Shown: positions 2,997 to 60,218, counted from the first letter of the stretch. The stretch is 64,000 nucleotides of DNA from a virus (IMGVR_UViG_3300025693_000001); one strand, 5' to 3'. The notes: generated from the letters alone by a model not told the origin. Made by a program: numbers and translations.

Positions 2997-3652
2997 TTAA
3001 TACCCATATATTTAACAGCAAGTTCAATATCTTCTTTATCCACACCATGCTGCTCAATTATGGTGGCCAGATCATCCATGAATGGAGCTAGTGAGTTGAT
3101 TTTATCATCCCAAGCATCATACCGAGATTGCATTTGTGATTCCATATATTCCATATTAGTACGCTATCCATCTGTGTGGTTTTGGTCTAAATCTACCAAA
3201 TGACACACCATGCATCTTGGCAAATCGACTACGTTTAGCTACTCTAGCTGTTGAGAAAATGCTTTGTCTGTTGTATTTAACTCGCAAGCGAGCTTGTACC
3301 CCACCCATCATCCCTAATATGTGTAGTAAGTCGGAATCCACTTCTCTACGAATCTCTTCAGCGAGTGTGGATGCCAACTCATCTTCCAGATTGAGTCCAT
3401 ATTGAACACTTAACATATCGCGATCTTCCACAGTGTACGTTGCTTTTAGCACCCGTAACATTGGTGGATAACCAAATAGCGCTCGAATTGCGTTTATTAA
3501 ACTTTTTAGGGTATTGTTCATTTGGTTTTTTGTAGTTCGCATATGATGTGGTTGCATGTTGTGGTGATGCTAAGCAATATACCTTCCATTTCCACTAACA
3601 GTTTTGATACATCGTTGTTGTTGAATTTCATCCTACCACTCTCATTGTTGTT

Positions 3653-3924: not shown

Positions 3925-4404
3925 TTAGGACTTGGTTCGTTTTTTATTACCATAGTTATCAGTTTGGCTGTGACAATTCGGACACAAAAAGCGTAAATTA
4001 TCAGCAGTGTTATTACGCCAATTACCATCTTTATGATCGATTTGTAATAGTAGTGGTTTGTTGTTGTATGTGTCAAATACTAAACACTCCTCACACTGAA
4101 CCGATCTGCCGACATCTACTAAAGCGCGAAATAGTTGGTATCGCTGTGTTCGTCTGGTTGAGTTGTGGGTATGTATCAGTATATCCGCAGTACATTTCTT
4201 TTTATTGCTAGATGTTCCCTTTGCCCACGATTTGCCCGTGAAGTGTGATCGATCGATACCAAGCCTATCCAGTCGGTTACGAAAACAACAAACAGACCCT
4301 CCTTCTATTTTCTCGTATCCTAGCGCTCGCATCGCACCAGATAAACTATACGATGCTGTCACCGCTTCTGTTATTTCTTCTGTCGTGAATTTGTATTTAG
4401 TCAT
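3925..4404 (-). CDS. HNH homing endonuclease (paralogue B)
   Basis: ...LLQIDHKDGNWRNNTADNLRFLCPNCHSQTDNYGNKKR; collinear with the 2244-2744 protein along its whole length. Confidence 0.75.
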   Translation of the reverse strand: MTKYKFTTEEITEAVTASYSLSGAMRALGYEKIEGGSVCCFRNRLDRLGIDRSHFTGKSWAKGTSSNKKKCTADILIHTHNSTRRTQRYQLFRALVDVGRSVQCEECLVFDTYNNKPLLLQIDHKDGNWRNNTADNLRFLCPNCHSQTDNYGNKKRTKS

Positions 4405-7544: not shown

Positions 7545-8075
7545 TTATATTACTTTGTTGCCGTGACCAACTTGCATCAAGTCAGCAGCAAACTTATCCA
7601 TTTTAGTTGGGCTATCAGCCATGCCTTCCGCTTTAGCAAGGTGCTGTTCTGTTGTACCTTTGAATCTAAACGACTTAATTAAACTAATAAGTGCAGTCTT
7701 TTTAGCGTCACCTGTAGCTGCCCACACTTTTTGTGCTGCTGCATCTAGTTGCTTGAAGTCACCACCTTTTTTTGCTTCCACCAATATGTATTTCGTTGGT
7801 GTGTGATGTTCTATTTCCGCTTCTGTAATACCAGCTAATTCCATTATCCGGTTTTGCGTCAAATGGTGGTCATCCCCAATATCTGGGTTAACACTTTCCG
7901 ATATTGCTGTAGGTGCGTTTACGGCGCTTTGTTCTTCGGTTGCTTCGATTAAATGGCGATCACCTGATTCCGTGATCCCAGCTAACTCTTTTAATCTATC
8001 TTGTTCCATTATTTTACTTCCTGCATATAGCTTTTTAGTGAACGAGTAGTTCCACCATTGGTTAAAAACTTCCAC
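7545..8075 (-). CDS. Hypothetical protein with internal tandem repeat (RLKELAGITES... / RIMELAGITEAE...)
   Basis: ORF with a repeated ELAGITE motif; overlaps the start of the next gene. Confidence 0.35.
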   Translation of the reverse strand: MEVFNQWWNYSFTKKLYAGSKIMEQDRLKELAGITESGDRHLIEATEEQSAVNAPTAISESVNPDIGDDHHLTQNRIMELAGITEAEIEHHTPTKYILVEAKKGGDFKQLDAAAQKVWAATGDAKKTALISLIKSFRFKGTTEQHLAKAEGMADSPTKMDKFAADLMQVGHGNKVI

Positions 8076-9553
8076 ACATCGTTGGGGATTTTGTGTAGCA
8101 TAGGTCCCATTAGTGTTTGTGCAAATATTTGTGCTTCTTTGAAATCGTGTATAGTTCCAGCTTTTAATTTATCATGTAAGTCTTCGAACGCGTTCGCCAA
8201 GTCGTTATAAAAATTGGCAGCATCACGATTAGATGAGTCCAACCGTTTGGCTTCTTTTCGAGCTTGATCGATTTCAGTTTTCAACTGGCTAGTGATCTCT
8301 GCTGGGATTTTCATCTTGTTCGATTGATCGTCTTGCTTTGTATCCAACTGGCTTGGGCTTTCGTCGTTATTTGTTCCACGTTTATCCCATACCTGTTCAT
8401 CGTTGGCACTACCATCTGTAACATTTACCGGCTTATCTTTGTCTTCTTCGTAGTTAGTATATTTGTTGTCAACGTAATAATGCATAGACTCTTTCACGTG
8501 TCCTTTGAAATCGAACGAACCGAATTTATGCGTTTGACCAGCTACACGTAGTTTTTTGGCTAATTCATCATCTTTATCCAACTCAACGTCATAGAAATCA
8601 TCCGATGCGTGGCGTGATGGTTGATCTTTAAAAAAGCTACCATTCGGTTTGGCTTCACTTTTGATGGTACCGTTACCCATCGATGTGCGAACACGATCAC
8701 CGACTTCATATTTACCATTCGATGCACCCTCAGTAACAGCCTCTTCTTTGTTTTCTTTTTTTGGTGTATCTGTGGATGAAGTTGATTGTGCTTTTGAATT
8801 TTTATAATTGGATGACGTCAACACATAATCTTCGATTGGTGACAACGACCCACCAGCACGTGCTTTTTGGTCAGCTTTTTTCAATAGTGCATCTTTTTCT
8901 TTTTGTTCCATGGCATCTAGTTTTTTGGCCATACGAGAGTCATTTGATGTCGTAGCTTCGGAGTTGGATTTAATTGAAATGATTAACCCCTTACCCCCTT
9001 TCATTTGTGCTAGTCTAGCTTTTGCTTTATCTTCTGCCTCTTGACGAGTATCAGCGATAATATCAAAACCATCCGTATCACGATGCTTCACTTTTACTGT
9101 CCAACGAGACTCGCTCAGTTGTTCATTTTCATCCAGACTCATTTCGGAATGGAATGCAGATGACTCTTCTTCCTCAGCCTTTGCTTTTGCGGCTTGTTTC
9201 TCAGCTTTTAGGTGAGTCTGTTGGTCTTTGTCAAACGCATCCAGCAAGTGTATCAGTCCAGTACTACCATTATCACCTTCTAACACATCTTCCAATTCAG
9301 CGATCATGTGTGGAATATCTCCACCAAAATCAGTAGCTGGAATTTTGTCTAATGCTTTGATTGCATTTTGTAGATGTTTGATCGCACTTTTTAATCCAGC
9401 AACTTTACCGGTTAGTGACTTCTGGTCTTTTGCTGTTAAGTCTGATCGACGCAGTGGTGTTTTTCTAGCCTCTGTTACGGCAAGTCGTTCTAAAGAAGGA
9501 TCCATTCTGATACCAGAAAGTAATCTCATTTTGTTAAGTTCATGCATGTGCAT
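8009..9553 (-). CDS. Large (514 aa) low-complexity K/E/D-rich protein
   Basis: Long ORF with a charged low-complexity central region; no recognisable catalytic motif. Confidence 0.45.
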   Translation of the reverse strand: MHMHELNKMRLLSGIRMDPSLERLAVTEARKTPLRRSDLTAKDQKSLTGKVAGLKSAIKHLQNAIKALDKIPATDFGGDIPHMIAELEDVLEGDNGSTGLIHLLDAFDKDQQTHLKAEKQAAKAKAEEEESSAFHSEMSLDENEQLSESRWTVKVKHRDTDGFDIIADTRQEAEDKAKARLAQMKGGKGLIISIKSNSEATTSNDSRMAKKLDAMEQKEKDALLKKADQKARAGGSLSPIEDYVLTSSNYKNSKAQSTSSTDTPKKENKEEAVTEGASNGKYEVGDRVRTSMGNGTIKSEAKPNGSFFKDQPSRHASDDFYDVELDKDDELAKKLRVAGQTHKFGSFDFKGHVKESMHYYVDNKYTNYEEDKDKPVNVTDGSANDEQVWDKRGTNNDESPSQLDTKQDDQSNKMKIPAEITSQLKTEIDQARKEAKRLDSSNRDAANFYNDLANAFEDLHDKLKAGTIHDFKEAQIFAQTLMGPMLHKIPNDVWKFLTNGGTTRSLKSYMQEVK

Positions 9554-12261: not shown

Positions 12262-12667
12262 AGTTGTTACCTATTGATTTGTTGAAAGAACGTAAAGTAT
12301 ACCCTAAAGTGGGATGGAGTGTCAAGCGTGACCGAGGAACTGCTTAACCTGAACACTAGATAGCACACTGTGTCTAACGAACGATGGGTGTGCACGCATG
12401 TATTCGTTTTGATGGTTCAGCAAGTCATCTGCTAGATTACTCGCAACTTCAAGCGATGATCGATCAATAACACCGTCGCTGATGTGGGCCCGAATGAATC
12501 GGTTGGTACTCAACCCATTGCAGCACAATAGGTCGAATATGATAGTACCATTAAAACCAACCGCCTTCAAATCTTGTCCAATTGTGTTAAACTCATGGAC
12601 GGGATTAATTCCAGGTGTGGCGGTACATATAACGGTTAGTGCATTGACCTGCACTAACCGCAAATCG

Positions 12668-13138
12668 TTACTTGAGTGGATGCTCTTCATTGTCTTTTAG
12701 GTTGTTGTGATTTAAGTGGACTTGTTTCCAGAATTCCCGACGGTACTTAGTCATGGCCACCAATGCAATAAGCCACCAAATACCTGTGAACCAAAACCCC
12801 GATCCCAATCCTATGATACCTACTATACCTGAGGTATACAACAGCAAAGTGGCTAACCATTGCGTGGATGGTGTTATTGTGGTTTCGTTGGCGGAGTCAT
12901 GACTAGCTTGCACCACAGCAGCACCATCATCGACGAACGATGAGATTGTGAAAATGCATGCAAGTAACATGAGTAGCAATCCCCATATCCACATGACATT
13001 ACCAAAAATGGTAGCAATCCCAACGAGCCAGTTTGGCAATGGGTGAATGGAACCACCCATGTTTAATGCTGATGGATCGTACATGAATGTGAATATTGCT
13101 ACTACTTGTAGAGCTATTGATGTTATAATATGTTTCAT
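12668..13138 (-). CDS. Integral membrane protein (about 4 TM)
   Basis: Hydrophobic helices across the whole ORF. Confidence 0.4.
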   Translation of the reverse strand: MKHIITSIALQVVAIFTFMYDPSALNMGGSIHPLPNWLVGIATIFGNVMWIWGLLLMLLACIFTISSFVDDGAAVVQASHDSANETTITPSTQWLATLLLYTSGIVGIIGLGSGFWFTGIWWLIALVAMTKYRREFWKQVHLNHNNLKDNEEHPLK

Positions 13139-13718: not shown

Positions 13719-14831
13719 TCATTTTGTTTCCGTTTTTTCGTTTGAAATACCGTAGTTCTTCCAATTTTTCTTCATGGAAGCCTTGTAATCTACGGGACGT
13801 TGCATGTACAGGTTCATCACCAAGCCGAACTCTTGTTTGGTTAACTCTTGACCAGCTGTAATTGCGAAATCTTTGCGATCGTATCGTTCATTTGTTGCAA
13901 AAAAAGTTTCAACGGTGGAAACCATGTGGTTGTATCGTGTATCAACAAATTCTTGCATTTCATCGATAAGCACGATCGCTTGAGGGTCATCATAGAACAT
14001 TGAGCGCATATCGTCAACAGCATCATCAACACAAGCATCGAATAATCTACGTGGGCAGTTAATCGAATCTTTCGTGCGGTGCAACGACAAGTATTTTTCT
14101 GTTTTCAATTTGAACCACAAACCATCTGTAGTAATACAAACGAAGCCTTCAATGCTATCTGTCATGCGTGGTACAGATTCAACGAACGATACCACATCAT
14201 CTGTTTTTACGTTGGGGTATGAGTAGTCGATGAACGTTGACATAGAGGCAGGGCGATACAATCCTGTGGCAGTATCGCGGATATTCAATACAATCAATGC
14301 TGACTGCTCGTATCCTAACACGATTCGATTGTCGGGTCCCACCCATTCCAAGTTTACAGTGTGACCGTTTAGGGTGAAGTGCAACAAGTCCATTTTGAAG
14401 TCGATGTTCTCGTATTTGTTCAACCACTCCATAGCATCAATCGCTTGGACAGAAGCTAACGATCCTTTGGATTTTAGCCGCATTTCACTGCCATGCATGT
14501 ACGTTGAGATTAACGAACCATCCGACTTAACCATAATTCGATCAACAGTTGTTAGGTCAACATCCATAGTAAATGGATTTTCGTGCAAATTGTAGAATTT
14601 GTGCATAGGAAGTGCAGCTAATCTAATGGCATCCCCACATTCATCCAATTCAAACATAATACCTCGACATTCTTGCGCTGACGGTAAACAAAACAACGAA
14701 TATGATGCTAATCGATAGTTGAAAATTCGGTATTTAATGCGTTCGTGTGTGTGATCAGCGAAAAAGAAGGCATCGGTGGTTGATGTTAGGGCTATCAATT
14801 GATCGTATAAAGTTTGTTGGTATTGGTTCAT
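13719..14831 (-). CDS. rnlA: RNA ligase 1 (T4 RnlA-like, Rnl1 family)
   Basis: 371 aa from the ATG at 14831 (T4 RnlA is 374 aa). Nucleotidyltransferase motif I as MVKSDGSLISTYM (KxDGSL, compare T4 KEDGSL). The ORF-track start at 14867 is TTG. Confidence 0.75.
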   Translation of the reverse strand: MNQYQQTLYDQLIALTSTTDAFFFADHTHERIKYRIFNYRLASYSLFCLPSAQECRGIMFELDECGDAIRLAALPMHKFYNLHENPFTMDVDLTTVDRIMVKSDGSLISTYMHGSEMRLKSKGSLASVQAIDAMEWLNKYENIDFKMDLLHFTLNGHTVNLEWVGPDNRIVLGYEQSALIVLNIRDTATGLYRPASMSTFIDYSYPNVKTDDVVSFVESVPRMTDSIEGFVCITTDGLWFKLKTEKYLSLHRTKDSINCPRRLFDACVDDAVDDMRSMFYDDPQAIVLIDEMQEFVDTRYNHMVSTVETFFATNERYDRKDFAITAGQELTKQEFGLVMNLYMQRPVDYKASMKKNWKNYGISNEKTETK

Positions 14832-14876
14832 TAGTAAATATCCACATATGATTAAAAACAATAACAATACAACAAT

Positions 14877-19273: not shown

Positions 19274-20746
19274 TTATTGTTGCATTGGTTTACAGACTTT
19301 GTTTTTTGTCTCAAGATATAAAAGCTTGATTCGACGCTGTCTGCTTGGGAATGGTACTATTCGGCTCTCACCTTTCAACACAGCCCCATCACAATCATTA
19401 CATAGCAATTCTTTAACATCATTGATGTTGTTGTGTTTTTCATCGATCGTGAAGAACTTGTAAAATAATGTTAACATAGCGTACATAAAAACAAACAACA
19501 GAGCCAATGACCCAACCAATAACACTGCCCATTGTATCATACTCCACATTACATATGCAACATATCCAAACATCATAACAAGACCCACAATACCGATGGT
19601 GTTAACAATGCGCCACCCTAAGTTCTGACGCTTACACAACAATCGGTCGATATACTTAATGTATTTATCCAGTCTATCCCACATCGTGGTGTGAGCAGCC
19701 CACAATATCAACGATGCCAGCACATCAACGACTACACCAATCTTCACCAATGCTATTACCGTCAAACTAGTCAACACAACACTATCAACACTATCCAAAT
19801 CCGAGCCCATATAAATGATACTATATATGAAGGCTACGACCGATGGTATTAGTGGCACAAATGAAAAGAAATATTGGTTCAGTGTGCTGTATCCATCGGT
19901 GTGTTTGTGTGTGATTTTCGGCAGGTAGTCGTTGGCGAGCCAATTACCACCGTATTCATCGCTGAAAATATCCGCAGCATCGAATTCGAACACCTGCAGA
20001 ACCAAGTTCCAGTTGACGTTTTTTCTATAACCACACCCTGCCACAAAAAATGATAGCATCAATCTAAGGGTCATAGCCACCAACGCATACACAATCATAG
20101 CTTCCCACTTTATGGTACACGCAATTATCAATCGCTGTCTGTAGTTGCATTCATCCACCGCTTTGTTTGAGTGCCACATATTGACGAATCTCTTCATGCG
20201 AGGTCCAGGCTCTTTACCAAACACGCCTGCTGGGATTACCACAGGTAATGATGTATATTTTGCGATCTCACGACCAGCGGTGTATCCCTCACCTGCATAA
20301 TCCAACATATCTGTTGCGAAATCACCGTGCAACTTACGCATGAATTTTTTATTGATTTCTTTGCGACCACCAACAGCGTTTATAATCCAAGCGTGTAGAA
20401 TTACGTCTCCCGCTTTGGTGCAGCGTACGAATGTTTTTAGTTGTGTTAATGGTATTAACTGACGTTGCATTTCCTGTCTGCTACCTTTTTGTGCTGATAT
20501 CAGTAGGATGTGTGGATCGACAACATTTGATTCGTTTAGGGCGTCTATCAGCTCTTCTGTAATACACCAACGAACTTGGATGTCACCGTTAAGGATTTCT
20601 TGATTATTATCCCCCACCTGCAATTCAAAGTCAGGTGGGGGGTTTTTGTGGTGTTCAGCCAGAATGGCAGCAGTGTCTTTCTTTTGCTGTGCGACTTGCT
20701 TGTGTTGTTGTGACTTTTGTTTTTGTAACTTAGATTTTTTAGACAT
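19274..20746 (-). CDS. Two-domain protein: N-terminal cytoplasmic domain plus C-terminal polytopic membrane domain (490 aa)
   Basis: About 230 aa with a soluble character, then at least 6 TM helices; Cys pairs (CNDCDG) near the C-terminus. Confidence 0.45.
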   Translation of the reverse strand: MSKKSKLQKQKSQQHKQVAQQKKDTAAILAEHHKNPPPDFELQVGDNNQEILNGDIQVRWCITEELIDALNESNVVDPHILLISAQKGSRQEMQRQLIPLTQLKTFVRCTKAGDVILHAWIINAVGGRKEINKKFMRKLHGDFATDMLDYAGEGYTAGREIAKYTSLPVVIPAGVFGKEPGPRMKRFVNMWHSNKAVDECNYRQRLIIACTIKWEAMIVYALVAMTLRLMLSFFVAGCGYRKNVNWNLVLQVFEFDAADIFSDEYGGNWLANDYLPKITHKHTDGYSTLNQYFFSFVPLIPSVVAFIYSIIYMGSDLDSVDSVVLTSLTVIALVKIGVVVDVLASLILWAAHTTMWDRLDKYIKYIDRLLCKRQNLGWRIVNTIGIVGLVMMFGYVAYVMWSMIQWAVLLVGSLALLFVFMYAMLTLFYKFFTIDEKHNNINDVKELLCNDCDGAVLKGESRIVPFPSRQRRIKLLYLETKNKVCKPMQQ

Positions 20747-20803
20747 TACTGTTCCTAAACGATTAAATGTGAACCTTTAGTATACAGACAATACCCAATT
20801 ATT

Positions 20804-21340
20804 TCAACGCCACTGTGTCTTACGATGCTTTTTCCAACTATGGTTTTGTGAACGACAATAGTCATCCCACGAATTTGGTAGACTATTCACGTTGCGTTTA
20901 CCTCTCGGTTTAACAACGATACCATAATCGTCATACGCATCCCAGTTTTCTACTGCCTGTCTGCGCTCATTCGTGGTGCGTAGTGCTCTAAACCAACGAT
21001 AGCTGGAGTACTTAGATCCCGATAATCTACGAGGTCCTTTCCAACGGTACTTGCTTTTGAATCGTTTATTCCACTCGTCTATCAGATCTTGCAAGTGGAC
21101 TATTTCTCCATAATCATCACGTATTATGACTTCACTGTGGCGATATATTTGTATGCCATAGTGCTCATCCGCAAATTCTTGATGGTAAGAAAATGTAGTG
21201 AATTGGCTTCCAACTTCACCAATAGCTCGTATTGATGTGATATATCGGCAAGCTTCTTGTATATTTTCAAATGTCCACAATTTGCCATCAGTGTGATGGA
21301 AGATATGGATACGGTTTTGGTACGGTTTTGTTTCTTTCAT
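20804..21340 (-). CDS. Hypothetical protein, basic C-terminus
   Basis: AAGGA Shine-Dalgarno 9 nt before the ATG; clean ORF. Confidence 0.4.
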   Translation of the reverse strand: MKETKPYQNRIHIFHHTDGKLWTFENIQEACRYITSIRAIGEVGSQFTTFSYHQEFADEHYGIQIYRHSEVIIRDDYGEIVHLQDLIDEWNKRFKSKYRWKGPRRLSGSKYSSYRWFRALRTTNERRQAVENWDAYDDYGIVVKPRGKRNVNSLPNSWDDYCRSQNHSWKKHRKTQWR

Positions 21341-21437
21341 TTTGGGTTCCTTTAGTTAAAATATAACTAATGAAACCCACTTTTAAAATGTTTTATCATA
21401 ATATTGAAAAATCGTATGTTATTGGGTTTGTCTTAAT

Positions 21438-21467
21438 GTGGTGGTTGTTTTAACGTGTAACCACCAC
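21438..21467. other. Perfect 9-bp hairpin (GTGGTGGTT ... AACCACCAC)
   Basis: Inverted repeat seen directly in the sequence; no T-run on the minus strand. Confidence 0.4.
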
Positions 21468-22001
21468 TTTGCTATACTTATCGATTCGGAACAGTTAACA
21501 CGCGTTACCAACTAAATGGGTTTAACCCCGATACAGCTTCACCGATACCATCCAGTGCTTCGTCTACAACATCCGTTACGTCTGTTGCGATTTCAGTATC
21601 CAGTAGCATGCTAGTAGCACCAGCAACTAAGCCAGCTCCAACCAGACCACCAGCAATCGATATGATGTCAGAAACGATACTATCGTCCCCACATACTTCC
21701 ATCAGTGCGTCTTCTGTATACGTGCCTGCAGCATAGCCTGCAGCCAATTCCAAAATTGTTTTAGTTGTGCTCATTTTATCTCCGAAAGTGTACAAATAAT
21801 ACCAACAACATACACCCAAATCGGGGCACCGGTTATTACAGCTACCGACACACCAAAGATAATGAGTGTTACTGGGTGAAACATGCAAAAGAAACCAATA
21901 ACATAGGCAAGGATGCCCATATCCATTCCAATTACAAGAAATAAACAAAATAATATTAAATACATGTGACTATTATACCTGGTGTGTGAATTATTGCAAC
22001 C

Positions 22002-22436
22002 TCAGTCGCTTAGAAATAGAAAAGCTTTGTGATATTTTTCCAAACGGGTGAAGTCTTTTGCTCTAATACCTTTCATGCGAAGAATATCCGAGTTGTGTCG
22101 TAAGTCAGCTTTTTTGATGTCGCGTGCGCGAAAATCTAGGTGTGGCGATGCGTAAACTCGCTTGATGTAATCATCGTACGTCTCATCTTTCAGGTGTGTG
22201 ACAGCTTCAACAACCATCACAGTTTCCGGTTCAAATCCTTCGTTGATCAATCGTTCATAATACCACTCAGGACAATCTTCAATCAAGTCATGCATAACAG
22301 CTGCTATACGTCCTTGTGTGTCATTTTCTGGAATTTGATACATAACTGCCAAGCAGTGTAATATGTATGGTTGCCCACCTTTATCGAATTTACCTTCGAA
22401 TGCCTGTGCGACGATGGCTATAGCTTTATCAAGCAT
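22002..22436 (-). CDS. HD-domain small alarmone hydrolase (RelA/SpoT hydrolase-domain-like)
   Basis: GGQPYILHCLAV ... AAVMHDLIEDCP reproduces the SpoT hydrolase H...HD...ED signature (compare GePYitHpLaVA...AALLHDvvEDT). Confidence 0.7.
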   Translation of the reverse strand: MLDKAIAIVAQAFEGKFDKGGQPYILHCLAVMYQIPENDTQGRIAAVMHDLIEDCPEWYYERLINEGFEPETVMVVEAVTHLKDETYDDYIKRVYASPHLDFRARDIKKADLRHNSDILRMKGIRAKDFTRLEKYHKAFLFLSD

Positions 22437-23001
22437 GAAACACCTTTTGTTGTAGTGATATAATAGTATAACACATCAACAAAAGGTGGTCAAGTGTTAT
22501 TTTTTCTTCTTTGTGGATGTTTTTTTCTTAACTGCTGATACAACTTTAGCAGCTACGGATTGTGATGGGGTTGGTTCTTTAACGTCTTCAACTTCTTCGA
22601 CTGTATCCACAGGAGCTTCAACAACTGGGATTGTAGCTTCTTTAATTTCTGTGTTGGCGATTTTAGCTAAGCGTGCTGCACGCTTTCTCATTAATGTGTT
22701 CATTTAGGTAGATCTCCTTTATAATTGTTGGTATTTATCCGAAAATGCTCTCTAGCCACGTTTTTTCTTCTTCATACTGACTGGTTATATCTTCAGGATT
22801 CTTTCGAGCGCGGTCCATTGCTACTTGCAATTCGCGTTCAGTAAACAACGCTGGAGCGACAGTGTCGTCTTTTGTGTTGATGTAGCATGGGAAATATGTA
22901 GCATTTGCTAATCGGTGTTGTTCGAGGTTTTCTACTTCCTCGTTCATATCCATGATGGATGCGATTGGTTCTCTTTGGTCAGTCATGTAATTCTCCGTTG
23001 G

Positions 23002-23784
23002 TTATTGTACTCGATCGATATGCTCTTTTGCATATGAATATAAGCGTGATATTAGTTTCTGGTAATACTTGTTGTCCGTTGGATGAAAAATGGACTTAGG
23101 TGGAGGGGTGCTTCCAAATATAGATGACATGATTGTTGATTTGCCTGATTTGAAAATCATCTGCAGCTCATACTTAGACAGTTGTTTAAAAATTAATTCC
23201 GAAAGCTGCTCATTTGTAATCTTTTTTCCATCAACCTTATCCAACTCTGCAGTTAACCCTTTCATTGCTTGAGATAATCTAGCGTTAATTTCCGTACGAC
23301 GACGGTGATATTGTTTGGTGTGGTCCTGATCACCTTGTGAATCTGGCTCATTTGTTTCTTTGTGTTTGGATGTCATTCCTTTGTGATCGCCCTTCGTTTG
23401 TGAGTATTCCAGAACGTGTTTCAACTCATGCACCAGTGTGCTAGCTAATTTTGTTTTTGATCTTAATGCGTGGGTATTGACTGCAACCATCCCTTGTTGT
23501 GCTTCACCAGCGTTGTTAGATGCTTTGGAATTAAACACCTCCACTTTAACTTTACCCAATCTGTTATATAATGAACCTGTTAGTTTTGAACCTGCTAATT
23601 TAGCAACAGTACCAATCACACCCGTATGTGGGATTTCGTGATCGCCCAACTTCATCGAAGGTAGAGTTCCATTTTTTATACCATCCATGATGTTGGTGGC
23701 TATCGCATCGGCCAAGGCACTGATGATGCGCTCATTTGCATGACTTTCATATAATATATCACTAACTTTCATTAAAATCTCCAT
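23002..23784 (-). CDS. Putative zinc metallopeptidase (HExxH)
   Basis: TLVHELKHVLEY HExxH motif. Confidence 0.35.
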   Translation of the reverse strand: MEILMKVSDILYESHANERIISALADAIATNIMDGIKNGTLPSMKLGDHEIPHTGVIGTVAKLAGSKLTGSLYNRLGKVKVEVFNSKASNNAGEAQQGMVAVNTHALRSKTKLASTLVHELKHVLEYSQTKGDHKGMTSKHKETNEPDSQGDQDHTKQYHRRRTEINARLSQAMKGLTAELDKVDGKKITNEQLSELIFKQLSKYELQMIFKSGKSTIMSSIFGSTPPPKSIFHPTDNKYYQKLISRLYSYAKEHIDRVQ

Positions 23785-24068
23785 GTGTTAATTGGGTATT
23801 TATGAGGTAATACCCACCCATAAATACAAAATACAATAATATAGGATGGTAACATGATACGAATTACACTCTCTGCTGAATTTTTGGTAGATGTACTAAC
23901 AAAATCGGGGCAAGCAATGATAATATCGGAAGGTGGATTGGATGGATACAAAAACAAATTAGTGAGCATTGACCACGATACTGTGAAAGATCACATAACA
24001 TTGATGTTTTCCGATGGGTGCGAAGAAATAACAGATAGGACCATAACCATAACAGTGCCTAATTAAAT

Positions 24069-24143
24069 TGGTAGTCCCGTACGGAATCGAACCGTATACG
24101 GCCTCTGTGTAAAAGAGGTTCCTCGCCATTCGGACTCGGGACT
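24069..24143 (-). tRNA. tRNA-Val (anticodon TAC), CCA encoded
   Basis: Perfect acceptor AGTCCCG/CGGGACT; anticodon stem CCTCT/AGAGG with loop TTTACAC; T-arm TACGG-TTCGATT-CCGTA. Confidence 0.65.
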
Positions 24144-24689
24144 ATTTTGTGTTGCGTTGTACGGATTGAAATAAATGACAATTCCAGTTACATTCTAACC
24201 GCTCATATGCAGCGATAGCTTCCTGTTCATCGAAGTATATTTGATTACCAACATCTGCGTCTTCGAATATTATAATCCACCGCTGATCGTTATCATCTCT
24301 TGGATGGTAATAAGTATCATCAGTGGTTACATCGTTGCATCGTTGTAACATACCGCTGATTTTCATATTTGCGATGTGAATACGACGAATTATCTTATCT
24401 TGGTTGTTCTGTGAATCTGCAACTGGTCGGTTCAACGCAGCGTACCAAGCAGATCTCCACTTACACAACTGATCATATTCAGCGATGTTTCTGTTGCTTA
24501 TCACATCCAATGCCAGAAGAATACAATAGCCATTGATGCAAAGGTGGCTCCAATATAACGCAAGAAATCTTTTATTGGGTCATCATCGTATCGTTTATTT
24601 AAAAACCACGTTAATACCCAAACTACAATTAATGTTACAATAGCGACAAAAGCTGTCATTTTTTTACCTTCAAAATAGTTAAAATTAAT

Positions 24690-32955: not shown

Positions 32956-34050
32956 TCATAATAGGTCAGCAATAACTGCGATGCGAAGATTATCGATTGC
33001 TACACCAATTTGCTTACCTTCCAACGTATGATTGGCCGGTAGCGAACGAAACGATATAAATCTGATGAGGTTGTGTCCTTGTATAACGCGATCGTATATC
33101 AACGCCCCTGATGGATTCACTACACTAATGGCGGTTGAAATATCGTAGAGCAATTCAGAAGTTTTTATTGTTTTTAAAAATCCCAATACAGCCTCTGGTG
33201 TTACATCGTTGCTCACCAATTGCATAGCATGTTGAAATGCTAGCACATCTCTGATTACTGATGATGGTGCTCGTAGCTTTGTTAATGCGTCAGAAGCATC
33301 CAGCATCGGTCCAAATAATATCATCATTCGGATGGCGGTGCTGCAATTTCTGAGTGTTGCCGATCTAAACGATTTTCCATTTGCTACCAGAGTTTTTGTT
33401 AGCCCTGGTATGATAACATTCAATGCTCCACATCGATGGAGTATCCAAAAAAACTCCATTGCATTTGGTAGCTCGATTGCTTTAGCTGTTTCAGCCCACA
33501 CACGTTCGGGTACCAAATGATCCACTTCACCGTTTGTGGTCATTGTTGTCATCAATTGCATTGTTTGTCTGGTTACATTGAACCCATACTTAGCGTTGAA
33601 TCTAGCTATTCGCAACAATCGTACTGGATCATCCGCGAAATGCTCGGATGTGTGTTTTAGTGTTTTGTTAACAAGATCTTGCAACCCACCACATGGATCG
33701 ATCACTTTGGTAACATCATGTGTTGTTTTGAACTGATCCCAATCAGATAGCAATACTGCCATTGAGTTAATAGTTAGGTCACGGCGTAGTAGATCTTCGG
33801 CTAAGGTAACGGTGGGATTGAAGTTCGTTTCGAACCCATTGTAACCGTTACCGTTTTTCCGCTCGGTTCTAGCTAATGCGTATTCATCGCCATTGGGGCA
33901 TAAGAATACGGGAAAGTCCGCTCCAACTTGCTTGTAGCCTAACGACTCCATCTCTTCGGGCGTTGAACCGACAACAACATAATCGATATCGTTTACTGGT
34001 TGGTTTAGTAAGGTGTCTCTAACGGCACCACCAACTACATATATTAACAT
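32956..34050 (-). CDS. cca: tRNA nucleotidyltransferase (CCA-adding enzyme, class II)
   Basis: N-terminal MLIYVVGGAVRDTLLNQPVNDIDYVVVG (GGxVRD...DxD head-domain signature); 364 aa. Confidence 0.85.
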   Translation of the reverse strand: MLIYVVGGAVRDTLLNQPVNDIDYVVVGSTPEEMESLGYKQVGADFPVFLCPNGDEYALARTERKNGNGYNGFETNFNPTVTLAEDLLRRDLTINSMAVLLSDWDQFKTTHDVTKVIDPCGGLQDLVNKTLKHTSEHFADDPVRLLRIARFNAKYGFNVTRQTMQLMTTMTTNGEVDHLVPERVWAETAKAIELPNAMEFFWILHRCGALNVIIPGLTKTLVANGKSFRSATLRNCSTAIRMMILFGPMLDASDALTKLRAPSSVIRDVLAFQHAMQLVSNDVTPEAVLGFLKTIKTSELLYDISTAISVVNPSGALIYDRVIQGHNLIRFISFRSLPANHTLEGKQIGVAIDNLRIAVIADLL

Positions 34051-36958: not shown

Positions 36959-37405
36959 TCACCCCATTTTCTCCTGTATTATCTGTTTGATGATAGGTCC
37001 AGCGATTTGTCCATCCACTTGATCCGGAAAGGCTTTGTTTAACGCACCCATCGTTCTACCCATCAACTTCATGGAGATTTCCGATGATGATAAACTAGAT
37101 AACAATCCCGACGCGAATTCAGTAATCACTTCTTCTGATATTGTAGCTGGAATATATTGCTCGTACAACGCAACTTCATTTATTTCAGCATCAGTCAGCG
37201 GACGATATGTTTGATTGTCTCGAACGCCCTTAATGAATTTCTTGACAACCTTCATAACTTCATCGTCAGTTGACTCACGATTACCATCATTCTTACCTAA
37301 GATGGCAGCTTCGCCGTACAGTGTTGTTAATGTTGTTGCGGCAGCTTTATTTCGGTCCTTACGGAATTGCAATCGATCTGCAGCTATTTGTGATAATAAT
37401 GACAT
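36959..37405 (-). CDS. yqeY: GatB/YqeY-domain protein
   Basis: C-terminal MGRTMGALNKAFPDQVDGQIAGPIIKQIIQEKMG against YqeY MGKVMGAL...GRADGKLVNQIVKEKL; the N-terminal half is also collinear. Confidence 0.75.
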   Translation of the reverse strand: MSLLSQIAADRLQFRKDRNKAAATTLTTLYGEAAILGKNDGNRESTDDEVMKVVKKFIKGVRDNQTYRPLTDAEINEVALYEQYIPATISEEVITEFASGLLSSLSSSEISMKLMGRTMGALNKAFPDQVDGQIAGPIIKQIIQEKMG

Positions 37406-37415
37406 ATTGTTGTTC

Positions 37416-37868
37416 CTATTTGTGTGATTTTAGATTGCGCAATGTTATTGTCGCATCAGTATCAAGTGTGTTTTCGTCATGGACGCTTTTTTTTGGCTTT
37501 TGCTCTGGTTGTATCTCTCGCTTGGGAAACATTTCTCTCCACCGTTTTTTGATTCGTGAGTTCGCTATGGCTACGTCATCATGCCATTCAAAATCAAAAA
37601 ATATCACCAAAGATGTGACTAATCCAATTACCAATCCTATCATGGCAATTATGATTTCGGGTTGTGTAAACCCTGATATCACTGTAAGCCTGTCGATATC
37701 CTTCGGGTTGTGTGGCACACTAACAACCAAACTGATAAATTGCCATCCAAAACTAATCCAGTACCCTATCACCGGAAAATGTCTACATTCGTTGTGATTT
37801 GACAATGCTACTATTGTGAACGTAATAGTAGTGAGAAAGATCATACATATAAAAAAAGTTAATATCAT
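37416..37868 (-). CDS. Membrane protein (150 aa, 3-4 TM)
   Basis: Hydrophobic helices; stop overlaps the NAMPT start region. Confidence 0.4.
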   Translation of the reverse strand: MILTFFICMIFLTTITFTIVALSNHNECRHFPVIGYWISFGWQFISLVVSVPHNPKDIDRLTVISGFTQPEIIIAMIGLVIGLVTSLVIFFDFEWHDDVAIANSRIKKRWREMFPKREIQPEQKPKKSVHDENTLDTDATITLRNLKSHK

Positions 37869-39289
37869 AATGTGTTAGTTGTGTTGAATCTAGTAGTACG
37901 AACTTCTTCCAATGTTGTAGTTCGCAATATTTTACCATTTAGGTACACAGGAGTGAGCATTTGTTCATCCATTGTTTTTGCCCCAATACAATCTGTTGTA
38001 AATTTACCTGCATCCGAACGGTATAACATTAATTGTCCACGTTTCGAGCGTTTACCGGTATCGGTAATCGGATCTTTGAATACATCGACCCACTCACCAT
38101 TGATAAATGCAGCACTTGCTTTATATGCCCATCTGCCAGTATCTCGATCCAGTTGTTGTAATAACGCACCACCCTGTCCAAATAATACATTTTCCGCACT
38201 GAACTTGTATCCAACCATCTTCGATAATATAGCATCAATGCTTTTGGTTGTAATGCCATCACCTTGCAACACTCGAACATGTTTTAGTACTTTATAGCCT
38301 TTGGTATTACGGATGTAACCGAATGCGGATTCAAGCAACAACATAATTTTTGTTACCACGGTTGCTGGATCACCACTATCAGGTCTGATAACTAGCCACC
38401 CATCACACTCAATAACCAATTCTTTCAGCTCATCACCCCAGATATGTTCAACTGCATTGAAAATATCGTACGAGTCGGATACCACAGAGAATGCGAAGAA
38501 CTTGTCTCCATATTGCTTCAACATATTGCGATATGCTTCTGTCTCCCGTCCCTTGCCCCATGTAGTAATTGAACTGTGTTCGGATGCTGGTACAGATTTT
38601 CCTGACATCTCATGCGAATATTGTCTATTTGCGTGAACTATACCTGGTACATTATCAGATCCTTTGAAATTTACCAAGTGTGCAGCTCCACCAATCATGG
38701 CACTTTCCAGTGAACTAACACCACGCGATCCGAAGTCATGCAACATAAAATCGATAGCATCTTCCTGTTCTTGTCCGGTTAAGTCGGATGTTGATTTCAT
38801 GTAACTCGTAATTACTTTTCTGGTGGTCCAGCTGTTGGTTGCTACTGTAGTTGGATACCACACACCACGTAATATCGATGGTTCGACGTGTGATGGTAAC
38901 CAAAAGCATTTCGGATCAGTATTAACGATAGTAACCAGTGCATTGCTTACCGGTACAACAGTACCTTCCGCCACCGACTTGATTTTTAACGGTAAGTAAC
39001 CGTTGTGCTCTTTTAATATGTGTTGCCATCCTTCTTTGTTGAATGGTTCACCATGAGCAGGCCAGAACAATTCCGCTTCGTCAATCATTTCTTGTGTGAT
39101 TGGTTTGCTCATGTATTCTTGTAAGAACATCTGCAATCCGAAGAATACCGTTTCATCGTATACCCCACCACGCGATTCAATATAGCAGTGAACATACTCA
39201 ATACCAGGGGGATACTGCAACCAATGGCTCGCTTTATATGAATCTGTGTTTAGTAAAATGTTAAAAACTGCGTGTTGTAAAAAGTTCAT
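37865..39289 (-). CDS. nadV: Nicotinamide phosphoribosyltransferase (NAMPT)
   Basis: Collinear with NAMPT across its whole length: FNILLNTDSYKASHWLQYPP, GWQHILKEHNGYLPLKIKSVAEGTVVP, LHDFGSRGVSS, AAHLVNFKGSDNVPG, IRPDSGDP, VLQGDGI, KRSKRGQL. Confidence 0.95.
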   Translation of the reverse strand: MNFLQHAVFNILLNTDSYKASHWLQYPPGIEYVHCYIESRGGVYDETVFFGLQMFLQEYMSKPITQEMIDEAELFWPAHGEPFNKEGWQHILKEHNGYLPLKIKSVAEGTVVPVSNALVTIVNTDPKCFWLPSHVEPSILRGVWYPTTVATNSWTTRKVITSYMKSTSDLTGQEQEDAIDFMLHDFGSRGVSSLESAMIGGAAHLVNFKGSDNVPGIVHANRQYSHEMSGKSVPASEHSSITTWGKGRETEAYRNMLKQYGDKFFAFSVVSDSYDIFNAVEHIWGDELKELVIECDGWLVIRPDSGDPATVVTKIMLLLESAFGYIRNTKGYKVLKHVRVLQGDGITTKSIDAILSKMVGYKFSAENVLFGQGGALLQQLDRDTGRWAYKASAAFINGEWVDVFKDPITDTGKRSKRGQLMLYRSDAGKFTTDCIGAKTMDEQMLTPVYLNGKILRTTTLEEVRTTRFNTTNTL

Positions 39290-40053: not shown

Positions 40054-41091
40054 TTACAACCGTCCCAACATATCAAAAATAATATCGTAGTGATCTTCAA
40101 ACAATTGATCGCGCATTTCTTTAATTGTGGTAATCGGAATCCATTGTGCTTTTTCAGCATCATCGCTTCCTTTCACTTTTGGAAGTCCACCTGGTGGTAA
40201 TTCGATACCGTAAGCATGTGTTATAGTTCTACCCCGTAAACTTCGGGCAGGGTGATCGTACACCTCTTGTATTTTGATATTCCCCCGTAATATAGGATCG
40301 GGCACCTTAATTTTAGTCTCTTCTCTTAATTCCCGTAACATAGCATCAATGAGAGTCTCGTTTGGATTTACAAACCCCCCGACAATAGCCCACAATCCTT
40401 TTCCTGGAGCCGATCGCCGTTTTACCAATAACACGTGTCCTGATTGCACCACTACAGCATCAACTGTCACGAAGATTGGTTCATATGGAGCTACAGCCCA
40501 AGCGGATTTATATTTCTGTATAAATTCATATTCATATTTCAGTTGTTCGAAGATAGGTTTTAGCTTCCATGCCAACAAGTATTCGTGAATAGCTTTTGGT
40601 AATGTTGGCATAACTTGTTTGCTGAAAAAGTCTGTTGAGTGTTCAAACAAAGCGACACGGATGTCAGTTGCGTGCAAGTCGTTGATATTAGGAACCTCAA
40701 CATGCTTCCATTGAGGAAACATTTTTAAGTAGAATGATGTGTCATCTTTAGTGTGACCGATCATTCCGATGTGGCTTCCTTCGGTGCTTAACGTTTCGAC
40801 CATTTTTTGGACTTGTGTAACCCAACGTTGATTGTTGTAAGCATCATCCGCAATGGGTGCAAATTGTACTCTGAGTTTTTCGCTATGAGATAGCGAGTTG
40901 CTGATCATTTCCGCACGTTCTTGCCATGACCAAGGATTTTTGATTGTCTTTGGTTGAAATGACGATCCGATTAGTATTATAACATTTTTGGATTGTTGTA
41001 ACGCAATTTTGATTGTTTCGATGTGTGCCAAGTGAGATGGCTGAAATCTACCAATGTACACGAGGTAGTCGTATTGTTCTTCTGTATTCAT
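40054..41091 (-). CDS. nadM: Bifunctional NMN adenylyltransferase / Nudix hydrolase (NadM-like)
   Basis: N-terminal YLVYIGRFQPSHLAHIE ((H/T)xGH-type nucleotidyltransferase motif); C-terminal Nudix box GGFVNPNETLIDAMLRELREETKI. Confidence 0.9.
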   Translation of the reverse strand: MNTEEQYDYLVYIGRFQPSHLAHIETIKIALQQSKNVIILIGSSFQPKTIKNPWSWQERAEMISNSLSHSEKLRVQFAPIADDAYNNQRWVTQVQKMVETLSTEGSHIGMIGHTKDDTSFYLKMFPQWKHVEVPNINDLHATDIRVALFEHSTDFFSKQVMPTLPKAIHEYLLAWKLKPIFEQLKYEYEFIQKYKSAWAVAPYEPIFVTVDAVVVQSGHVLLVKRRSAPGKGLWAIVGGFVNPNETLIDAMLRELREETKIKVPDPILRGNIKIQEVYDHPARSLRGRTITHAYGIELPPGGLPKVKGSDDAEKAQWIPITTIKEMRDQLFEDHYDIIFDMLGRL

Positions 41092-59663: not shown

Positions 59664-60218
59664 TTAAAATGGTAATGGGTTGTCATTGAATTGATCTCGA
59701 ACAGCCATCCATGCGAAGCCTAACACGTTCTCACCTTCCCACTCTTCTACGGTTAGCTTTTTAGCTCGAGCTGCATATGTACCAATACCGAGAACAGTAT
59801 CATACGTACTAGCACCAACGAGGATATCTTCACCAGTTGCCATCAAAGTGTCCATAACTTCACGGTGTTGGATAGCCTTGAGCACATTTATACGTACCAA
59901 GACGTTAAATAGGTGTTCGCTCCACTGTTCTTTATCAATCCCAACGACTTTAGCTTTCATGTCAATTGGTCTGGTGATCTTCATAATAGCATCTGCTGTG
60001 GCTACATCACCAAACATCAATGCTTTTGTAACAACCATTGCTTGTTCACCACAATTGAATGTTCGTGTACCATCAGTGATAGAGTGTGGACTCCACAAAT
60101 TTAAGCAACCTAGTGGTGTGGGTTGTTTATAGAAGTCAGTAACACCCCAAAAATAACTAAAGGTTGGTTCAAATCCATTCCGTATTGCTTGGATGAGTTC
60201 TTTTTTTGTGTTCATCAT
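59664..60218 (-). CDS. NADAR-family (YbiA-like, DUF1768) protein
   Basis: ...NCGEQAMVVTKALMF..., ...DTVLGIGTY...GENVLGFAWMAVRDQF against YbiA TSEHYFQAQKF...DAYWGDGGHG...NRLGYLLMELREQL. Confidence 0.75.
   Translation of the reverse strand: MMNTKKELIQAIRNGFEPTFSYFWGVTDFYKQPTPLGCLNLWSPHSITDGTRTFNCGEQAMVVTKALMFGDVATADAIMKITRPIDMKAKVVGIDKEQWSEHLFNVLVRINVLKAIQHREVMDTLMATGEDILVGASTYDTVLGIGTYAARAKKLTVEEWEGENVLGFAWMAVRDQFNDNPLPF

Follow-up and report, generated by a model that had tools for sequence, protein, structure and literature searches.

A putative Aph1-family hydrolase gene, without an adjoining toxin, in the tRNA-rich accessory region of an uncultivated jumbo phage

The hydrolase gene and its closest relatives

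The window analyzed here is a stretch of 64,000 nucleotides from a virus (IMGVR_UViG_3300025693_000001), and its gene of interest is a small open reading frame (ORF) on the minus strand, at 22002-22436, with 144 codons running from ATG (22436-22434) to TGA (22004-22002). We annotate its product as a putative HD-domain 3'-pyrophosphohydrolase of the Aph1/PbcSpo family. A first-pass annotation, made from the sequence, had given the position and length exactly and was silent on the strand. This is clearly a genuine protein-coding gene. The identical protein is recorded on metagenome contigs from JGI, the longest of which measures 324,905 bp, homologs are plentiful in the metagenomic records (79% down to approximately 50% identity), and the Aph1-type gene family occurs in 507 or more IMG/VR contigs and in 264 phage genomes that have been deposited. 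Among the 264 homologs from phage records, none exceeds 48% identity to the window protein. Two sets of homologs were used for conservation and context, namely 42 metagenomic sequences and 80 viral sequences, the latter being the best 80 of at least 507 IMG/VR loci, each taken with flanks of ±10 kb. The source contigs that carry the gene measure 278-325 kb, and the nearest relative of an RNA ligase encoded elsewhere in the window is 43% identical and belongs to a 349-kb Vibrio jumbo phage; the virus is therefore taken to be an uncultivated jumbo phage. It appears to have no close sequenced relative, and a megablast search of 50,697 phage records with the 6 kb that surround the hydrolase ORF returned no match.

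The gene had at first been described as SpoT-type, on the basis of a strong match to the HD signature of (p)ppGpp hydrolases. The HD signature itself is well supported. In a Pfam search, the check that the first-pass annotation had proposed, HD_4 (PF13328) was reached with 31.8 bits against a gathering cut-off of 27.2 (E 1.4e-7, far beyond chance; residues 5-84 only), and the PHROG family phrog_990, “metal-dependent phosphohydrolase,” matched the ORF with an E value of 2.3e-40. However, the resemblance to SpoT and Rel proper is weak and partial. NCBIfam TIGR00691 (spoT_relA) gave 38 bits against a cut-off of 499, over residues 6-89 only, and NF008303 gave 30.7 bits against a cut-off of 947, so the scores required by the curated SpoT/RelA families are missed more than tenfold. 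The strong match is to Aph1.

Aph1 (adenosine 3'-pyrophosphohydrolase 1; PDB 7SMG), encoded by a Bacteroides caccae prophage, is the founding representative of a family of monofunctional (p)ppApp hydrolases (Ahmad et al. 2023, PMC10083569). This 149-aa “(p)ppApp hydrolase” is the best PDB sequence match of the window protein (E 1.1e-22, residues 1-143), to which it is about 39-41% identical, and it stands ahead of all other PDB chains by approximately 14 orders of magnitude. Chains of Rel, SpoT, and RelH reached E values of 1e-8 or weaker, with long chains of RelA/SpoT homologs (RSH) between 1e-8 and 1e-3. The likeness to Aph1 extends to a single HD domain, a near-equal length, the HD/ED motifs, all six residues of a specificity signature, a match over the full length, and a superposing predicted fold. 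With the HD domain of SpoT/Rel, the window protein shares the superfamily, the HD/ED metal-dependent 3'-pyrophosphohydrolase chemistry, and the core helices, but the sequence match covers only its N-terminal 85-120 residues, template modeling (TM) scores are 0.66-0.76, and the synthetase, TGS, and ACT domains and the Rel helices α0 and α9 are all missing from it. The window protein is very probably an Aph1-family hydrolase.

Catalytic residues and substrate preference

Alignment to Aph1 places the metal ligands of the window protein at H27, H49-D50, and D111 and the catalytic pair at E53-D54, with N115 also kept; the Aph1 equivalents are H33, H53-D54, D110, E57-D58, and N114. The alignment was inspected for substitutions of the catalytic His and Asp, and none was seen, H49-D50 and the other catalytic residues being retained. 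H27, H49-D50, E53-D54, D111, and N115 are invariant in the 42 metagenomic homologs, and H27, H49, D50, D54, D111, and N115 in the 80 viral homologs, where E53 is found in 79. With its HD active site intact, the product can still be described, as it was at first, as a single-domain, phage-encoded small alarmone hydrolase (SAH). Separately, the residue that follows the first metal-binding His (residue 28, window 22353-22355) divides the family: it is Cys in all 42 of the closest metagenomic relatives, whereas among the 80 viral homologs, 39 have Cys there and 40 have Pro, the residue also seen in Aph1 and in the homolog from Salmonella phage PVP-SE1.

The Aph1 family is defined by the HD motif, a compact eight-helix fold without the C-terminal helix of other SAHs, and a six-residue signature (D24, R96, D116, R119, K133, Y134) that (p)ppGpp hydrolases do not have; the C-terminal approximately 53 residues (Y90-E143) also separate Aph proteins from (p)ppGpp hydrolases (PMC10083569). 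Aph1 is a tetrameric enzyme that hydrolyzes (p)ppApp but not (p)ppGpp. Hydrolysis of ppGpp by the wild type was undetectable and a D24R/R119A double mutant gained it, so D24 and R119 carry the specificity, and 12 of 12 assayed members of the family hydrolyzed ppApp, and did so efficiently (PMC10083569). The 7smg chain follows the numbering of that paper, as the alignment of D24-K25-A26 confirms, and the six signature residues are all present in the window protein as D18, R93, D117, R120, K134, and Y135. The guanine-excluding pair D24/R119 corresponds to D18/R120, which is invariant across the 42 metagenomic and 80 viral homologs. Y135 is likewise found in every member of both sets, and K134 in 42/42 and 77/80. 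The C-terminal block is well conserved, with a phmmer alignment that reaches residue 143 of the query and residue 142 of the 7smg chain. Staphylococcus aureus Rel has an Arg at the position aligned with D18, and the guanine-binding R43, R44, and S45 of TtRel correspond to D18, K19, and G20 of the window protein, a change from Arg to Asp at the first of these positions.

The predicted structure is consistent with this picture. A very confident AlphaFold2 model built from the 42-sequence alignment (pLDDT 95.8, pTM 0.90) shows a compact, all-helical HD fold equal in size to that of Aph1 and contains, by DSSP, eight helices of at least 6 residues and one 4-residue helix. In Foldseek comparisons, the model superposed on the four 7smg chains with TM scores of 0.89-0.93 and root-mean-square deviations of 1.2-1.3 Å over 142-143 columns, compared with 0.66-0.79 and 2.6-5 Å for RelH, MESH1, PaSAH, and the hydrolase domains of Rel/SpoT. 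SAHs of the MESH1/PaSAH/RelH type are single-domain RSH hydrolases like the window protein, but they are longer (approximately 175-195 aa), have an additional C-terminal helix, are dimeric and dual-specific, and lie within the same lower range of TM scores.

Judged from the signature and the homology, the enzyme is likely to prefer (p)ppApp over (p)ppGpp as substrate. The alternative is a SpoT-like (p)ppGpp hydrolase that would lower host (p)ppGpp and dampen the stringent response during infection, a role that the first-pass annotation had offered and that we now regard as unlikely. In its favor are membership of the RSH hydrolase superfamily, the HD_4 score above the cut-off, the partial spoT_relA matches, and the label “guanosine-3',5'-bis(diphosphate) 3'-pyrophosphohydrolase” that databases often give to homologs. 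Against it, the position of the guanine-stacking R43 of TtRel is taken by the invariant D18, R120 fills the space needed by guanine O6, both sequence and fold are far nearer to Aph1 than to (p)ppGpp hydrolases of any kind, and the NCBIfam cut-offs are far from reached. Modest ppGpp activity was measured for 2 of the 12 assayed Aph homologs (clusters E and I), and the same paper cites ATfaRel, an SAH antitoxin, as a degrader of both (p)ppGpp and ppApp; wild-type Aph1 itself showed no such activity and gained it only through the D24R/R119A exchange (PMC10083569). The SpoT-type identity was dropped on two grounds, the curated cut-offs that are missed and the specificity residues that differ, and the idea of a dampened stringent response loses support with it, given that the adenosine signature excludes (p)ppGpp in Aph1.

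A hydrolase gene without a cognate toxin in the window

The modules of temperate phages that contain Aph1 consist of a MuF-Apk2 toxin, IapK, and, as their third gene, Aph1 (PMC10083569; PMC12226406). The gene of Aph1 itself follows directly on the genes for a MuF-fused (p)ppApp synthetase toxin and a structural immunity protein, whereas the window gene sits in a tRNA-rich accessory region of a jumbo phage and has no such partner within the 64 kb. Streptococcus phage IPP37 and Pasteurella phage Pmp13 served as reference modules (two Apk2, two IapK, and two Aph1 proteins). Their Aph1 proteins match the window ORF with E values of 3e-23 and 6e-17, and both loci have the gene order MuF, small ORF, HD hydrolase. 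This Apk2-IapK-Aph1 arrangement is absent from the window locus, where the flanking genes are ORFans. Bulk Pfam scans (9 and 21 families) found no RelA_SpoT synthetase domain in the 116 non-overlapping ORFs of the window. No homolog of Apk2 or IapK was found in the window by tblastn and phmmer with filters off (best E 0.41), nor, in a tblastn search with the four proteins, in the 80 related viral loci with their flanks. The hydrolase gene is an orphan, at least within 64 kb.

These results bear on whether the enzyme could be an immunity enzyme against a (p)ppApp-synthesizing toxin of the phage itself, as Aph1 is in the MuF-Apk2/IapK/Aph1 modules. Aph1 and its orthologs from S. pneumoniae and P. 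multocida have precisely that role (PMC10083569; PMC12226406), those orthologs being the IPP37 and Pmp13 proteins that match the window ORF, and the 64 kb covered by our toxin search belong to a genome of 325 kb or more. Nevertheless, the window holds no RelA_SpoT domain, Apk2 and IapK are missing from it and from the 80 viral loci, its immediate neighbors are ORFans conserved in no relative, and the orphan homolog in lytic phage PVP-SE1 is also without an adjoining toxin. Immunity to a phage-borne toxin was accordingly rejected for the window, and for the phage as a whole we consider it very improbable. With no cognate toxin nearby, the gene is better read as encoding an orphan counter-defense or counter-toxin enzyme than an immunity protein.

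Likely role in counter-defense

Related enzymes indicate what such an orphan might do. Two stand-alone phage SAHs both neutralized five toxic small alarmone synthetases (toxSAS) in E. coli (Jimmy et al. 2020, PMC7229694). One of them, the SAH of lytic Salmonella phage PVP-SE1, was assigned to the PbcSpo subfamily and neutralized CapRel, PhRel, PhRel2, FaRel2, and FaRel (PMC7229694, Table 1); it is the best precedent from experiment for the window protein. The match to the window protein in the PVP-SE1 record is gene 220, annotated as a metal-dependent phosphohydrolase, which we take to be the SAH assayed in that study. Its product (gp220) shares 38% identity with the window protein over 97% of the length (E 3e-19) and 38% with Aph1 (E 9e-31), and its best PDB match is again 7smg (E 7e-27). 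The D, R, and K-Y positions of the signature are kept in both phage proteins, and PVP-SE1, a large lytic myovirus, likewise carries its small hydrolase as an orphan with no toxin alongside. The two differ in that gp220 is extended at both termini (annotated length 169 aa) and has a Gly where Aph1 has R96, and in that its gene adjoins a thymidylate kinase gene, whereas the window gene lies in a tRNA region. On this evidence, the Aph1 family and PbcSpo, for which PVP-SE1 stands as representative, would be the same kind of enzyme. Judged by its description, PaSpo of Salmonella phage SSU5 can be set beside the window protein as well, as a phage-encoded SAH that neutralizes all toxSAS.

A further precedent is ATfaRel, the PbcSpo-type SAH of Cellulomonas marina that serves as the antitoxin of the FaRel toxSAS. 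ATfaRel neutralizes all toxSAS classes, and its antitoxin activity needs the catalytic D54. In vitro it restored the aminoacylation of tRNA whose 3'-CCA end had been pyrophosphorylated by FaRel2 (Kurata et al. 2021, bioRxiv 10.1101/2021.04.30.441581), which speaks for tRNA-end repair as an ability of such enzymes. By description, the window protein may be likened to ATfaRel in targeting the product rather than the toxin, and both ATfaRel and Aph1 have a catalytic Asp at position 54; the difference is that ATfaRel is encoded in a chromosomal three-gene toxin-antitoxin operon together with its toxin.

The product that we propose for the window gene is an adenosine 3'-pyrophosphohydrolase of the Aph1/PbcSpo family, stand-alone and metal-dependent, that would be expressed early from a host-type promoter. 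It would cleave the 3'-pyrophosphate from ppApp and pppApp to yield ADP and ATP. Because tRNA ends in an adenosine, its 3' end should be chemically suitable for such an enzyme, and by analogy with ATfaRel and the PVP-SE1 SAH, the 3'-pyrophosphorylated terminal adenosine of tRNA may be cleaved too. The role of the enzyme would be to undo the product of host toxSAS-type effectors, whether ATP-draining (p)ppApp synthetases or CapRel/FaRel2-type enzymes that block tRNA charging, and it would work whatever toxin is present because it acts on the product. The first-pass annotation had suggested that the gene might neutralize alarmone-synthesizing toxin or defense modules, and the spectrum of the homologous PVP-SE1 SAH supports this. 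For counter-defense as a whole, we hold moderate confidence.

Several points weigh against it. In addition to the ppGpp activity of two Aph homologs and the dual activity cited for ATfaRel, two of the six signature positions are variable, with R93 an Arg in 23 of the 42 metagenomic and 34 of the 80 viral homologs, and D117 an Asp in 34 of the 42 and 68 of the 80. Substrate and specificity are thus predicted from homology and a six-residue signature. Neutralization of toxSAS by the PVP-SE1 SAH was observed on over-expression in E. coli, not in infection (PMC7229694), and the presence of a toxSAS or (p)ppApp synthetase in the host of the jumbo phage is an assumption. In the literature searched, we found no lytic-phage Aph reported as a counter-defense in a real infection, and nothing direct on (p)ppApp as an anti-phage output. 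The portion of the genome covered by the toxin search, noted above, belongs here as well.

Phage-encoded SAHs, the neutralization of toxSAS by SAHs, and the Aph1 family together with its signature have been published before; the window gene is a new, fairly divergent member of that family and adds no new principle. Hydrolases that degrade the product could nonetheless be a general phage answer to toxSAS, independent of the toxin or sensor that a host carries, and given the number of contigs and phage genomes in which it is found, the family may be among the commoner counter-defense genes. Relabeling proteins now called “ppGpp pyrophosphohydrolase” or “SpoT-like” as Aph1-type and adenosine-specific alters the predicted biology: the expected effect becomes a recovery of ATP and tRNA function, not a manipulation of the stringent response. 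The corrected annotation is the most useful practical outcome.

Association with tRNA and NAD-salvage genes

The first-pass annotation had also pointed to a link with the tRNA and RNA-repair genes nearby. Nearly all genes of the window, and all of its 14 tRNA genes, are on the minus strand. The nearest tRNA gene, for tRNA-Val, is 1.6 kb from the hydrolase gene, a T4 Rnl1-type RNA ligase (13719-14867) lies approximately 7 kb away, and a CCA-adding enzyme (32956-34050) approximately 10.5 kb away. At these distances, the genes do not form an operon in the window. Across the 80 viral loci, 25 hold tRNA genes within the flanks, and 195 of their 210 tRNAs are co-oriented with the Aph gene. The Aph gene lies within 100 nt of a tRNA in 6 of these 25 loci, compared with 1.03 expected (P ~3e-4 in a within-locus permutation, an approximate value given that random positions were not confined to gene slots). 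The six tRNA-adjacent proteins are only 37-62% identical to one another and thus come from diverged lineages. A CCA-adding enzyme is found within 10 kb in 7/80 loci, in one of which (L033, 9387-10340) it lies directly downstream of the Aph gene with a gap of 22 nt; Rnl1 is within 10 kb in 3/80. In another locus (L065, 9529-10429), the Aph gene adjoins a nucleoside 2-deoxyribosyltransferase-like gene. The Aph gene recurs in tRNA and accessory neighborhoods without a fixed partner, and so the link that had been noticed is real, in that the gene does recur near tRNAs, but loose.

One tentative extension of the counter-defense proposal is that orphan Aph proteins in large tRNA-bearing phages primarily repair tRNA ends, which we regard as possible, although the balance is against it. 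The adenosine pocket would read A76 and strip the 3'-pyrophosphate left by CapRel/PhRel/FaRel2-type toxins, and together with the phage tRNAs, the CCA-adding enzyme, and Rnl1, the hydrolase would make up a complete phage tRNA-maintenance toolkit. The placement of the gene in tRNA arrays of diverged lineages, the CCA-adding neighbor in L033, and the published activity of PbcSpo enzymes on pyrophosphorylated tRNA all fit this idea, which was partly anticipated for SAHs in general (Kurata et al. 2021, bioRxiv 10.1101/2021.04.30.441581).

A second recurrent association is with genes of NAD metabolism. The window itself encodes a nicotinamide phosphoribosyltransferase (Nampt; 37865-39289, minus strand) and an NMNAT/Nudix fusion (40054-41091, minus strand), the two-enzyme NAD+ salvage pair of KVP40-like phages that has been proposed to counter NAD-depleting defenses, as well as an NAD-dependent DNA ligase and a NADAR-domain protein. 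In three viral loci, L063 (336-3201), L068 (353-4024), and L087 (3761-6894), the Aph gene is followed by NMNAT/Nudix and Nampt with gaps of 90-436 nt, and Nampt is within 10 kb in 9 of the 80. In deposited phages, Nampt is approximately 5 kb from the homolog in Aeh1, and a PncB gene approximately 6 kb from that in Lbo-JY46. This company raises the question of whether the enzyme could act on another 3'-phosphorylated adenosine compound (NADPH, pAp, or an ADP-ribose-derived or signaling nucleotide) and serve nucleotide or NAD metabolism. RSH enzymes are promiscuous, MESH1 being a NADPH phosphatase that acts on pyrophosphorylated tRNA too, but every one of the 12 assayed Aph1-family members hydrolyzed ppApp efficiently, and the ppApp signature is intact in the window protein. 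Adjacency to NAD salvage, direct as it is in those three loci, is seen in only a minority of them overall, clustering of counter-defense genes is an equally good explanation for it, and no alternative substrate has been reported for the Aph1 family in the literature searched. A substrate of this kind seems quite improbable to us, and hydrolysis of (p)ppApp is retained as the preferred activity.

Transcription and translation signals at the gene

Upstream of the hydrolase gene lies a σ70-type promoter-like site, TTGACC-17 nt-TATACT, at 22465..22493 on the minus strand, with an extended -10 TG and 10/12 consensus matches. The end of its -10 element is 28 nt ahead of the ATG. The coding strand of the window has 22 strong σ70-like sites and the other strand 6, compared with approximately 9.8 expected per strand in Markov-1 simulations and a maximum of 20 in 30 simulations. 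This suggests that the window is a many-promoter early region that would be read by host RNA polymerase, and the site at 22465-22493 probably drives early transcription of the hydrolase gene by that polymerase.

The promoter-like site is nested within an imperfect inverted repeat (22441..22488, minus strand) whose 22-nt arms, 22441-22462 and 22467-22488, are 86% complementary. The corresponding RNA hairpin, situated between the stop codon of the upstream gene and the hydrolase ATG, has a ΔG of -21.9 kcal/mol (z -4.8; of 200 shuffled sequences, 1 folds equally well). The -10 hexamer is in its apical part, and the 3' arm holds the Shine-Dalgarno sequence AAGGTG (22446-22441). In a read-through transcript, the ribosome-binding site would be paired, whereas a transcript from the gene's own promoter would not include the 5' arm and would leave it unpaired, and the hairpin could in this way tie translation of the hydrolase to the promoter of origin. 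Promoter-dependent translation through such hairpins has been described for some T4 genes.

Three bases past the stop codon of the hydrolase gene begins another promoter-like site, TTGCAA-16-TATAAT (21999-21972, minus strand). Its end is 6 nt short of the ATG (21965) that opens a hydrophobic ORF of 64 aa (site to start codon, 21963-21999, minus strand), and because of this short distance, the mRNA of that ORF may be leaderless.

Other genes of the window

The window has a G+C content of 40% throughout and holds further genes that may be of accessory character. Approximately 1 kb from the Rnl1 RNA ligase is a homolog of the RnlB antitoxin (122 aa; 12322-12690, minus strand; PDB 6y2p_C E 3.9e-9, Pfam RnlB_antitoxin E 2.5e-18), a candidate inhibitor of host RnlA/LsoA-type RNase toxins; in T4, inhibition of such toxins is the job of Dmd. 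The NADAR-domain protein mentioned above is encoded at 59664-60218 on the minus strand (E 9e-30), and the bulk scan gave a weak Macro-domain match (E 8e-5) somewhere in the 32-64 kb part of the window. NADAR and Macro domain types reverse ADP-ribosylation, and these two proteins may be further counter-defense candidates. A YqeY-domain protein of 148 aa (36959-37405, minus strand) is encoded between the CCA-adding enzyme and Nampt; YqeY is related to the tRNA-binding tail of GatB, and the gene may be another tRNA-related accessory gene.

Closer to the hydrolase gene, the flanks at 19274-21948 and 22497-24510 gave no Pfam match and at most PHROG families of unknown function, and the immediately flanking ORFans had no homolog in the 80 viral loci. 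Three genes upstream of the hydrolase, a 260-aa ORF (23002-23784, minus strand) contains a metalloprotease-like HELKH (HExxH) motif; it had no PHROG or Pfam match, spurious TPR matches in the PDB, and no homolog in the 80 viral loci. For a 514-aa ORF (8009-9553), no exact record was found.

The window also contains HNH endonuclease genes. Within its first tRNA array, a 133-aa ORF (3156-3557, minus strand) has a 48-residue match to the T4 Gp23 major capsid family that is above the Pfam cut-off (E 1.2e-6). The ORF beside it (3925-4404, minus strand) gives weak HNH endonuclease matches (E 3e-4), just under the Pfam cut-offs, and the Gp23-like ORF may be a fragment of a capsid gene carried by a homing endonuclease.

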